Below, piece after piece: positions 30,004 to 61,989 of a stretch of DNA of 64,000 nucleotides. Position numbers and translations under genes: made by a program. Below the pieces are notes generated by a model. The model was not told where the DNA came from. It ran no database searches and was given only the letters and a program-made list of their open reading frames with translations. Origin of the DNA: Octopus vulgaris (Eukaryota); the NCBI GenBank assembly GCA_951406725.2, contig OX597822.1, positions 89,466,001-89,530,000 of the forward strand. Reading direction: 5' to 3'. The first letter of the stretch is position 1; each line of letters opens with the position of its first letter.

Positions 30004-30102
30004 ATGGCAAGTAGTGGTTGCCATCCGTGTGTGGATTTTCTTAATAAAGACGAACTTTTGGAAACACTCCAAAGACCAGAATATGATTCCGTTTGGAATT
30101 CA
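30004..30102 (+). CDS. Methylthioribose kinase-like gene, coding exon 1
   Basis: ACGATGG start context; MASSGCHPCVDFLNKDELLETLQRPEYDSVWNS; donor CA|GTAAGT, phase 0. Confidence 0.7.
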
Positions 30103-30874
30103 GTAAGTCACACTTTTATTTCTTAATATTTCTTTTCTTCATTCTATCATTCACATTCCAATAATCACTAATTAATATCTAAGGAAATGTTATTGACACA
30201 ATCTTTAGGTATGAACCTTTTACTGTCACTAGGTCTGATATTTTGGAGAAGTCGGGGTAGTCGATTACATCGACTTATGTGTGCTTCTGGTACTTATTAA
30301 CATCAACCCCGAAAGACAAAAGTCGACCTCGGTGGAATTCGAACTCAGAACGTAAAACCGGAAGAAATTCTGCTGTGCATTTTGTACGGCATGGAAGCAA
30401 TTGCTCTAAGTTCACATATATATATAAATCCTGCGCGGGATTTAATGATTAAAATGATTCTTCCAATTATTATAATGAGGGTTCGATGGATTTATTTTTT
30501 CCGCAGAATTGTCAAACGAAACAGCTGACCCGATCAGGTACAGCGTTCGGTAAATTCCGTAAAAAAAATTTCATTTGTTTATTTTTGTGGGTGGAAATGG
30601 GCATTTTGTTTGAAGTTATCATAAAGTGAAAGAGAGAGGAAAATGGACATGGACATGTGTATGCGTTGATGGGGGGGGGGGGGCGTGCAAAATACAAAGT
30701 GTCAAAACGAAAGATTGCCAAAAATTTTTAACCCTCACTCTTCGGACCGATTTTGGTCGATTTTGTGGGCACTACGCACGATGATTGGGTGGGGGGCACT
30801 ACGCTCTTAAAAACCATAGGAGAAGCCTTTACGGCAAAAAAAAGTAAATATTTTTAGATAAAAAGCTGTGTGAT

Positions 30875-31116
30875 TAAAGGGAGATTTTGCTGTTGTTTCT
30901 AGCATATCCCATGACCACTGTTCTCGTTTCTTTCTTACTCTAACAAGTATTGATGTTTTTCAATATTTTCTCCCCATTAATAGCATAAACTCATGCTATT
31001 AAAAAATTTTTTTTGAAAATTTGTTTTTATCAACTCTGTTTTTTTTTGAAAATGTGATTTTATCATGACCTTACTGGCCATGAAATATGCTAGAAATAAC
31101 AGCAAAATCTCCCTTT
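30875..31116. mobile_element. MITE with about 40-bp TIRs
   Basis: aaagggagattttgctgttgtttctagcatat / atatgctagaaataacagcaaaatctcccttt. Confidence 0.7.
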
Positions 31117-31469
31117 CCTTCTGGAAACATTTACTAATCTTTTAAAGAAAAGGCTTCTCTTATGGTTTTTAAGTGTGTATTGCCCATAGAATCGGTCTGG
31201 AGAGGGTAATGGAGAGGTGTTGAAAAATTTTCCAAAAATTTTATTTCACTAAAAAGATGCTCCAGATAGGGAACTGTGAAAAAAATCTGAAAAATCCCTC
31301 CAAAACAGAGAAATTCCAACTTATGTGGGTCACTTATCACTGACGTTCACCATCTTTCTCTCTCTCGGGCCTCACGGAGGAAATGACAATAGACCGAGAT
31401 GTCTGGCAATATGAAGTCCTTGAGAAGACCTGCACACATCAGCAAAACTGAGTTCTAGAAGCACTGTGT

Positions 31470-31870
31470 ATCCCACCCATACTTAACAAGAAAACTTCTC
31501 ACACACTCTATCACAACAAACCAAACTACGTCTCTGCATCTCTTCTCATCCTCACATTTCTGCTTCATATACTATGCTTACCTACCACTCCCCAATCCTG
31601 TCCTCTTGGCCCTGTGCCACTGTATCATTGCTCTCTGCTTGCCCCCGACTATATGTTCTGCCCACATGCCCTGACTCACTGTATTATTGCTATCTGTTTA
31701 GCCCCGACCTGTGTGTTCCACCTACACGTAACAAGAAAACTTTTTCATCACCCAACCCCAACAAACCAATCTACATCTCCACATCTCTTTCTCACATTTC
31801 CTCCTTCATGCACTATGCCTAGCTTTTACTCCCCAATCCTGTCCTCACGGCCCTGTTCTTCTGTATCATT
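31470..31870. repeat. About 250-bp direct duplication, CT-rich
   Basis: aacaagaaaactt...ctcacatttc...ctccc(c)aatcctgtcctc...tgtatcattgct at about 31484 and 31730. Confidence 0.65.
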
Positions 31871-60060: not shown

Positions 60061-61149
60061 CTTCATATATACATACATACATACATACATACATACATAC
60101 ATACATATACAAACATGTATATAAATACATAATGAAAGTAATTGACATTGAAACCATATAATAGTGAAAGTATTAATAGAGATTTTATTGTTGCATTTTT
60201 GACACGTAATATGGAAACAACGTAAGAGATAAGACATTGTACCAGGCTTGCATTAAGCAAGAAGCTGAAAATGTTTTTGGCCCATGACATTGCATGGACC
60301 CTAAGTAAAGCCTGTCTAAAATTTTAAGGAAATCTGTTGGATAGTTCTCAAGTTTTAGTGATGCACATAGACAGACACACATTCTGAGTTTTATATATAT
60401 GAATATACACTCACACACATTCATGCACTTACACACATATGTTTCTAGATTTGTATGCATTTATAAATATACATACATGAGCTTGTGCATGTATATGTAT
60501 AATTGTTTATAGAGGCAATGACAAGTGACCAAGACTTCTGGTGACTTGTTGTGCTTGAGAAGACACATCAAGCTACATGAAATTTTGATCATATCCAGTG
60601 CTGGTGATACATAAAAGGCATCTGTGCTGGTGACATATAAAAGACACTCAGTATGCTCTTTAAAGTGGTTGACATTAGGAAGGGCATCCAGCCATAGAAA
60701 CCAAGCTAAAATAGGCAACTGGAGCTTGCTGCAGCTCTCTGAAACTGTCAAACCCATGCCAGTATAGAAAATGGACATAAAATGATGATAATGATGACGA
60801 TGATGATATACACAAATTATATTCTAGAAAGTGTTCATAGCAACAGGTTTTAGATGAAGATACAACAAAAGACATATCTGCTGGCATGTTAAGATGCACT
60901 TTTTTTTTTTTTTACTTTTATATGTATCACATAATTGCCCTGTGTCTAATGTGGCTATACTTTGGATAGGAGACTGTATGTCATAGGGTAGAGAGCTGGA
61001 TGAACATTAAGTCCACTAGGCACAATCATTTTCAGAAATAATAAGACATTTGGAAACAAACCAAAATATCAACCTTGAACTCTGTTGCACATGCACACTA
61101 AGATATAACATCCTTACTCACTTCTGTTATTTATAGCAGTGCTTGGAAG

Positions 61150-61514
61150 TGATATGTGCAGAATGTGGTCATCTCAAAAATATTGGGTTTCAACTGTGCA
61201 GGATCTCATTGTGTCAAGGAAGACAAAAACTTTTTGAAAAGGGTCATAATAGGTATCAAATCATGGGTCTATGCCTATGACCCCAAAACCAAAGCTTGGA
61301 AAGAATCCCACTTGAAAGGAACAAAATTTCATGACATGAAGAACTATCCCATAAAAGGAGTTTCAGGAATGCTTCCATCAATGGAAATGATGCTAGATTA
61401 AGTGTGTGACTTCAGAAGGGGACCACTTCAAAGGAGATTAAATACTGAATTCATATGTGTTGTAATTTTTTTTTTTTATAGCACCAGTCCCGGTACTTTT
61501 TGATCAGACCTCAT
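61150..61514 (+). mobile_element. Mariner remnant, internally deleted
   Basis: NFLKRVIIG..SWVYAYDPKTK...LKGTKF...KCVTSEGDHFKGD*; right TIR tactttttgatcagacctca-ta. Confidence 0.75.
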
Positions 61515-61748
61515 ATTCTGTTTTGAATTTAACTTTATTCTTTATTTTAAGTTATTTATTCACTGAAAATGAATATATGATAATGAGATCAAAATAAAAT
61601 TGGAACATATTTGGAATTGTCTCCTGTATTTGCTGGTAAAATGGAAACAATATGATTTTTCTTTTCACTTGCTACATGATTATTTTTAGTTAGCGTTTTG
61701 AATGCTCCCTAACTGTATTATAGTGACCTTTCTGAGTTCTTTCTACAG

Positions 61749-61989
61749 AACACAACATTGCCAAGACATTGTGGAACAGCTTACATTTGTGGCACCATTC
61801 CAAAAAAACAACATATTAATTGAAGAAGACCATATCATAGAAGAAACCCTTAAAAGAGTGAATGAGAAACCCATTGTGTCAACAGCAGTGAAAGACATGA
61901 AGAATGTTTTCCATTTTACCAAGGAATGCTTAATTCATGGAAATCTCCAATTGGATTCCATTTATTTCACCTCTTCAAATAATGCTTAT
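61749..61989 (+). CDS. Methylthioribose kinase-like gene, coding exon 5 (gene continues beyond window)
   Basis: ctacag|(A)TQHCQDIVEQLTFVAPFQKNN...AVKDMKNVFHFTKECLIHGNLQLDSIYFTSSNNAY|gtaaat; aligns with MtnK LC.ITE.LVFT.PF and LK..F....E.LIHGDLH.GSI. Confidence 0.85.

Follow-up and report, generated by a model that had tools for sequence, protein, structure and literature searches.

A 64,000-nucleotide stretch of the Octopus vulgaris genome (the window; positions 89,466,001 to 89,530,000 of contig OX597822.1) was analyzed and found to carry the first five exons of an intact, spliced 8-exon gene of the methylthioribose (MTR) kinase family, referred to as MtnK or MTK. The protein encoded by this gene has Asn in place of the catalytic Asp and has also lost the Asp of the metal-binding DxE motif, and both its reading frame and a specific set of residues persist in octopods and decapods. 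On these grounds, it is probably a conserved pseudokinase, in which a predicted kinase fold would act by binding and not by phosphorylation of MTR.

Gene structure, splicing and family relationship

A first-pass annotation made from the letters of the window had described five exons with matching borders and phases and an open frame of 261 amino acids, and this description was borne out. The exons, of 99, 144, 127, 172 and 241 nucleotides (Table 1), are connected in phases 0, 0, 1 and 2, with GT after each of exons 1-5 and AG ahead of exons 2-5. When joined, they give 783 nucleotides that are free of stops in frame 0, the other frames containing 13 and 25, and the translation matched residues 1-261 of the deposited 395-residue O. 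vulgaris protein P0005 (CAI9728235.1) with 0 mismatches. Exons 6-8 were located in 60 kb of sequence downstream of the window, where a single set of GT-AG borders yields the remainder of P0005 exactly and ends at a TAA stop. The gene is not “hidden,” as had been supposed, since its orthologues are already called “methylthioribose kinase(-like)” in RefSeq and UniRef and P0005 itself bears the UniRef name “Methylthioribose kinase.”

Evidence for splicing was sought in assembled contigs of 4 sequencing runs (4 studies) that were aligned at exon 5, out of 24 runs listed, 20 of which contain the stretch wholly or partly. The designation of these runs as RNA is a guess, none being recorded as such, and the evidence for splicing consists of the joined contigs themselves. 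In all 4 runs, contig coverage extended from 61749 to 61989, which corresponds to exon 5 exactly, and the loose ends of the contigs matched the 3′ end of exon 4 and the 5′ end of exon 6. The junction evidence that the first-pass annotation had called for was thus present for the 4/5 and 5/6 joins, the two of seven junctions to which read evidence is limited. Three contigs hold 753, 936 and 677 letters 5′ of exon 5, where exons 1-4 require 542 nucleotides. A genome search with exon 5 returned this locus alone, and given this single locus, a processed DNA copy offers no ready explanation for the joined exons. Two sequence differences were observed among the runs: a T>G change at 61814 in run X12 (organism B), which encodes Arg203, the residue found in O. 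sinensis and O. bimaculoides, and a synonymous TTC replacing TTT at F265 (exon 6) in runs X1 and X5.

Assignment of the gene to the MtnK/MTK family was upheld by profile and structure comparisons. The only strong family match of P0005 was to TIGR01767 (E 3.4e-21), at 75.8 bits and below the curated cut-off of 275 bits; four intact invertebrate MTKs scored 246-294 bits against the same profile, and two of the four passed (Lingula, 294.4; Haliotis, 282.6). When a profile of 11 close rows was compared with the PDB, the top matches were the MTR kinases of Bacillus subtilis (E 1.1e-32) and Arabidopsis thaliana (8.4e-28). A structure model computed from a 126-row alignment gave a predicted local distance difference test score (pLDDT) of 88.8 and a predicted template-modeling score (pTM) of 0.91, and its best structural match was 2PYW (E 9.1e-17, template-modeling score 0.82), with PsiK, LxmK and choline kinases ranking lower. 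Searches with single exons yielded no useful Pfam match, and their PDB matches, both to MTR kinases, were sub-threshold (E 0.075 and 0.13). The O. bimaculoides orthologue P0001 scored 12.6 bits against the Pfam APH family (PF01636), below the gathering score of 23.2. By sequence and fold, the octopus protein is homologous to the MTR kinases but probably does not function as one.

Active-site residues, mechanism and constraint

The roles of the relevant residues in MTR kinase are described in PMC2194712. In that enzyme, D238 of the HGD motif polarizes O1 of MTR, D255 and E257 of the DxE motif bind the two Mg ions, the GxGNxN loop contacts the phosphates and O4 of MTR, K63 contacts the α-phosphate, and F258 and R365 contact MTR. 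By alignment, the octopus equivalents of D238, D255, E257 and F258 are N246, N264, E266 and F267, whereas K74 is the counterpart of K63, K345 that of R365, at the first Arg of the RR motif, and NDGQFS that of GxGNxN, with the central Gly (G51) as the sole survivor of this glycine-rich loop (G-loop). Survival of DxE had been left for the next exon to decide; this exon reads LTNFEF, with the Asp codon now AAC, and the motif is not kept. In comparison with the MtnK/MTK enzymes of TIGR01767 (B. subtilis, 2OLC/2PUN; A. thaliana, 2PYW), the octopus protein retains the β3 Lys, the HG of HGD, the last two residues of DxEF and the second Arg of RR, but reads HGN for HGD, NFE for DxE, NDGQFS for GxGNxN, KR for RR and QLD for HTG, and it is encoded by an animal gene with 8 exons.

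Motifs were tallied over 6 coleoid, 35 other-animal and 82 non-animal rows, with 3 abalone duplicates kept apart and with some of the other-animal rows assigned by tree position. The HGD Asp was present in 0/6 coleoid rows, as against 35/35 other-animal and 82/82 non-animal rows, and the DxE Asp in 1/6, as against 35/35 and 82/82, the single coleoid row with DFE being the decapod-type P0011. Asn52 and Asn54 of the G-loop were found in none of the 5 coleoid rows, versus 27/29 and 30/30 other-animal rows. By contrast, K74, E95, E127 and G51 were kept in all 5 coleoid rows covering them, and E266, F267, D276 and R346 in all 6. Position 250 is Asp in 6/6 coleoid rows, where Gly is found in 34/35 other animals and 82/82 non-animals. 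Among coleoids, position 264 is N, G or D, and the RR motif reads KR in octopods and RR in decapod-type rows. A wider set of 12 coleoid-like rows, several of them isoforms or near-copies and five assigned by similarity, contained 11 HGN, 1 HGS and 0 HGD, with D250 in 12/12. The HGS row is P0203, an octopod-like exon-5 fragment (71% identical) with Ser at position 246, and Asn at this position is therefore not invariant. Thus, the change in catalytic motifs first noticed in the window extends across coleoids and is not local. A pseudokinase is defined by sequence as a kinase fold without at least one of the β3 Lys, the catalytic Asp and the cation-binding Asp (PMC4718504), and the octopus protein has lost the second and third of these.

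The consequences expected from the structure of the intact enzyme are as follows. Without the HGD Asp, the residue that polarizes the sugar O1 would be gone; without the DxE Asp, so would the ligand common to both Mg ions; and loss of the G-loop Asn residues, together with the first RR Arg in octopods, would remove phosphate and ribose contacts. Given these combined losses, MTR phosphorylation is expected to be nil or trace. The retention of K74, E95, G51, E127, E266 and F267 in all covering coleoid rows makes a nucleotide-holding cleft likely, where E95 would be the αC Glu, judging by its invariance and by a helix at 92-105 in the model. Such a cleft would probably still bind adenine nucleotide with one metal ion or none, in the manner of HER3 and the JAK JH2 domains, and the protein could then function as a nucleotide-stabilized adaptor or scaffold. 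The kinase step itself may have been rendered dispensable by methionine salvage through MTAP and MRI1. A role as a sensor of MTR is disfavored, given that the MTR-contacting residues are partly lost.

HER3 and JAK JH2 have Asn at the catalytic position and bind ATP, with weak activity in HER3 and JAK2 JH2 (PMC4718504). The comparison concerns the way of working only: the catalytic-loop Asp-to-Asn change, the kept β3 Lys, a part-degraded G-loop (JH2) and a regulatory role are points of likeness, but HER3 and JH2 belong to the protein kinases, retain the Asp of the DFG position and bind one cation, whereas the octopus protein descends from a sugar kinase, is no member of those families and lacks this Asp as well. 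Pseudokinases are common, making up ∼10% of the human kinome (PMC4718504), and this limits the surprise of finding another.

Several lines of evidence indicate that the coleoid gene is likely constrained at the protein level. Open frames of 391-401 amino acids are present in three Octopus species, Argonauta and two cuttlefish-type rows. Tree distances correspond to ∼268 (octopus-argonaut) and ∼509 (octopus-cuttlefish) amino-acid replacements, and ∼18 and ∼34 nonsense changes would be expected on these paths under neutrality, as a rough estimate that assumes equal mutation rates; the frames are nonetheless open. Columns conserved in intact animal enzymes were invariant across Octopus, Argonauta and Sepia more often than other columns (47/107 versus 69/262, p 0.0013), and in 36 columns the coleoids are fixed for a residue that is seldom found in other animals. 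Stops, frameshifts and splicing loss, the usual marks of a pseudogene, were not found. The first-pass annotation had held that neutral decay of a simple pseudogene would count against its proposal, and open frames in octopods and decapods, with splicing seen, speak against such decay.

The genomic context was surveyed for further copies of the gene and for other steps of methionine salvage. Neither the TIGR01767 profile nor an intact catalytic segment of the Lingula protein detected a second MTK locus in the genome, although each recovered this degenerate gene. A second TIGR01767 match (L009, E 0.81) was dismissed as retroelement-like sequence, its open reading frames being judged by eye, and two weak Lingula-segment matches (E ∼6, with stops) were taken as chance. 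Exons of MTAP (best E 4.7e-19, G000:C10:3402322-3410771) and of MRI1 (MtnA; best E 7.8e-65, G000:C23:8386368-8396359) were identified, and a genome search with a profile of the MtnN nucleosidase found nothing. MTAP gives MTR 1-phosphate directly and by-passes the kinase (PMC6302742).

A number of observations weigh against the pseudokinase interpretation. The good structure model depends on an alignment of mostly intact enzymes and is biased toward them, and a model from a shallow 11-row alignment was poor (pLDDT 49.6) and was set aside. An Asp-to-Asn change does not ensure inactivity, as HER3 and JAK2 JH2 illustrate (PMC4718504), and the catalytic loop itself contains D250, a new and invariant acidic residue. 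With respect to constraint, 21 of 36 columns conserved in intact enzymes are altered in at least one coleoid, octopus-cuttlefish identity is 42-43%, and the Lingula-octopus distance is 3.1, compared with 1.3-1.5 from Lingula to other mollusc copies. Coleoids also keep only partly the C-terminal lobe (C-lobe) stretch at residues 271-325 that other degenerate copies conserve (33% versus 49% identity to the intact consensus). Finally, a whole Mercenaria protein matched nothing in the genome, this gene included, an uninformative blank that shows the paralogue searches to be of limited reach, so that “single copy” means that none further was found with these queries.

Origin of the coleoid copy and rival explanations

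Motif-intact MTK-like proteins are named in bivalves, gastropods, a chiton, the brachiopod Lingula, the annelid Owenia, echinoderms, amphioxus and the sponge Sycon. Such invertebrate proteins (Mercenaria, Haliotis, Lingula, Owenia, Lytechinus, Branchiostoma and Sycon) are the closest relatives of the octopus protein, at ∼27% identity, and differ from it in that HGD and DxE are retained (35/35 rows); the lophotrochozoan members have a C-terminal helix in common with octopus, and the coleoids fall among the lophotrochozoan rows. P0012, P0021, P0023, P0151 and their relatives are such motif-intact MTR-kinase homologues of marine invertebrates. No sequence named Nautilus was present among the rows seen.

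In a 69-row tree, which like all trees here was a quick tree and which used 25 of the 82 non-animal rows, bilaterian rows lay on one side (support 95), and the coleoid clade (100) was placed within a lophotrochozoan group (96) on a stem branch of length 1.78 (1.75 in a mixture-model tree). This nesting on a long stem suggests inheritance from an early bilaterian gene that went through an episode of rapid change along the coleoid stem, and the occurrence of intact MTK-like genes across invertebrates favors vertical inheritance. Of the origins proposed at the outset, ancient retention is thus supported by intact genes from bivalves to a sponge. Placement of coleoids outside all other animals was not rejected by the approximately unbiased (AU) test (p 0.465), and nesting within molluscs is favored, not forced. 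Sycon was placed among non-animal rows in one tree (LG+G4). On these data, a recent horizontal transfer need not be invoked, and the gene may have entered the animal stem by an older one.

Degenerate MTK copies are not confined to coleoids. Among the best 150 of 1363 matches, the catalytic Asp was present in 125/134 further representatives covering that position, and eight MTK-like proteins of full or near-full length had a broken HGD or DxE (P0153, P0156, P0158, P0171, P0195, P0197, P0221 and P0249). These eight are likely lophotrochozoan by tree; they keep a C-lobe segment characteristic of lophotrochozoan MTKs, with 49% identity to the intact consensus at residues 271-325, as against 20-29% in the N-terminal lobe, at residues 129-240 and in the catalytic region. 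Two of them, P0197 and P0221, carry a long N-terminal extension that includes a hydrophobic stretch. The existence of the eight raises the alternative that an older non-catalytic MTK subfamily was common to lophotrochozoans and that coleoids lost the active paralogue. This concerns origin, is compatible with a pseudokinase role and is judged unlikely. An LG+G4 tree set the broken proteins beside coleoids with support of 91, a result that carries a long-branch warning, and a forced clade of coleoids with five of these proteins was not rejected (p-AU 0.288), although it was 6 log-likelihood (lnL) units less likely. By contrast, the mixture model grouped the five tested with two intact-motif rows (97), away from coleoids, and a grouping of coleoids with molluscs equalled the free tree in likelihood (+0.06 lnL, p-AU 0.488). 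Furthermore, the coleoid signature was seen in no named non-cephalopod mollusc row, and the abalone duplicates arose inside Haliotis in the 69-row tree. In these duplicates (P0036, P0045, P0047 and P0141), DxEF has become NAGC, and most also lack the G-loop and the β3 Lys; an intact copy is listed beside the duplicate in H. asinina and H. rufescens.

Repeated loss of catalysis with retention of the protein hints at a non-catalytic role. A reading judged less likely than not is that, besides its enzyme activity, the MTR kinase of invertebrates performs a non-catalytic function that outlasts this activity; catalysis would then have been dropped independently at least three times (on the coleoid stem, in the abalone duplicate and in a lophotrochozoan-like group), and the sole coleoid copy would have turned into a scaffold gated by nucleotide, its new invariant Asp and N-terminal motif having become fixed before octopods and decapods separated. 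The octopod-decapod split took place roughly 270 million years ago.

A second alternative is that the coleoid protein is still active as a kinase or ATPase but re-wired for a new substrate, in which case D250 and E266 would assume the metal or base roles and the sugar site would have altered specificity. The presence of D250 in 12/12 coleoid-like rows, where nearly all others have Gly, the retention of K74, E95 and E266, the DFE of P0011 and the weak activity of the Asn-bearing HER3 and JAK2 JH2 (PMC4718504) are all compatible with this idea. Both G-loop Asn residues are gone, however, and the free variation at 264 (N, G or D), together with Ser at 246 in one fragment, is more readily explained by release from catalysis than by a new fixed site; a re-wired enzyme is accordingly regarded as improbable.

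Still less probable is a vestige under relaxed selection, transcribed and spliced but drifting with no specific role once MTAP had made the kinase redundant. The long stem branch, the low octopod-decapod identity and the 9 differences between O. vulgaris and O. sinensis over the first 261 residues would be expected of such a relic, but the open frames, set against the stops expected under neutrality, and the structured conservation with its 36 coleoid-fixed residues would not.

Coleoids recode their transcripts extensively, and restorative editing is reportedly discussed for them. The first-pass annotation raised A-to-I rescue of the AAT codon, and both lost Asp codons (AAT at 61942 and AAC in exon 6) are indeed one A-to-G step from Asp, P0011 reading DFE. 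Restoration of the enzyme in some tissue is nevertheless very improbable indeed: contigs, which drop minority variants, read A at 61942 in 4/4 runs and AAC wherever their exon-6 ends reach the codon, which speaks against rescue in the majority transcript; the cuttlefish Gly at 264 cannot become Asp by A-to-G; changes at the G-loop, H248, G250 and R345 would persist; and 301-nucleotide folds around the codons, which capture local pairing only, were no more stable than 40 base shuffles (−53.7 versus −60.9 ± 4.7 and −51.1 versus −53.5 ± 5.2). One supplement file each of PMC8382921, PMC4384741 and PMC9068888 contained no mention of MTK; the full editing tables may lie elsewhere, and these files are not counted as evidence.

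Genomic surroundings and implications

The features of the window and of the sequence downstream are listed in Table 1. The zinc-finger cluster points away from the MTK-like gene, and its array at 11152-12083 is split across frames. The long open frames downstream likely represent a neighboring gene that faces the MTK-like gene.

Table 1. Coordinates of the MTK-like gene and of surrounding features (window positions unless a locus prefix is given)
Feature	Position	Strand	Remarks
Coding exon 1 (ATG; residues 1-33)	30004..30102	+	Identical to P0005
Alternative first coding exon (MSNISV, then GT)	36664..36681	+	Candidate; phase 0 into exon 2; matches N-terminus of annotated O. sinensis isoform X2 (P0006)
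Exon 2 (residues 34-81)	45570..45713	+	Degenerate G-loop NDGQFS at 45615-45632; kept β3 Lys K74 at 45690
Exon 3 (residues 82-124)	48291..48417	+	Kept helix Glu E95 at 48330
Exon 4 (residues 124-181)	53168..53339	+	Hinge, kept E127; 3′ end joined to exon 5 in contigs
Exon 5 (residues 181-261)	61749..61989	+	Catalytic loop HGNLQLDS; N246 (AAT, 61942) replacing catalytic Asp; coleoid-specific D250
Start of intron 5	61990..64000	+	Gene continues beyond window end
Exon 6	L002:3491-3653 = G000:C9:89532491-89532653		DxE reads NFE, E266 and F267 kept; joined to exon 5 in contigs
Exon 7	L002:6395-6485 = G000:C9:89535395-89535485		RR reads KR
Exon 8	L002:8761-8911 = G000:C9:89537761-89537911		TAA stop
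Tandem C2H2 zinc-finger open reading frames	1-1395, 8258-9178, 11152-12083, 18444-19565 (cluster 1-19565)	-	Pfam match for first
Tc1-type transposase piece	2652-2960	+	E 8.3e-15
Broken reverse-transcriptase element	23646-27433	-	RVT_1, E 4.6e-5
Retroelement-like fragments, similar-looking, in introns 1 and 4	40334-40924, 58702-59657	-	Two open reading frames scanned, no Pfam match
Long open frames (126, 877 and 308 amino acids)	L004:8528-8905, L006:1000-3630, L006:8814-9737	-	

Five further proteins of 760-832 amino acids (P0213, P0216, P0222, P0225 and P0230) have their MTK match in the C-terminal half and are likely MtnA-MtnK fusions, by analogy with the Tetrahymena fusion in PMC6302742. The substrate range of the family extends beyond MTR: 5-deoxyribose is also a substrate, and ATPase activity is reported too, for DrdK (PMC6079011), which belongs to the same family as the octopus gene but is bacterial, active and clustered with an isomerase and an aldolase. 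By analogy, the intact enzyme of invertebrates may serve in part to salvage 5-deoxyribose.

Databases already list the gene, but as a pseudo-enzyme it appears not to have been described. A search of listings and abstract openings, whose coverage excludes most subscription papers, returned no article dealing with an MTK of cephalopods or other animals or with its inactivation, nor did the sources covered contain a published assay of any invertebrate MTK-like protein. MTR kinase has been presented as a plant and bacterial enzyme that lacks a mammalian homologue and is a selective herbicide or antibiotic target (PMC2194712). The motif-intact homologues of marine invertebrates bear on this claim of selectivity and on the salvage of methionine and 5-deoxyribose in animals. 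The coleoid copy carries the enzyme name in RefSeq and UniRef though it is without the catalytic residues, and pathway reconstructions based on names would therefore be misled. The intact bivalve and degenerate octopus proteins provide a clean pair for studying how metabolic enzymes gain non-catalytic roles.

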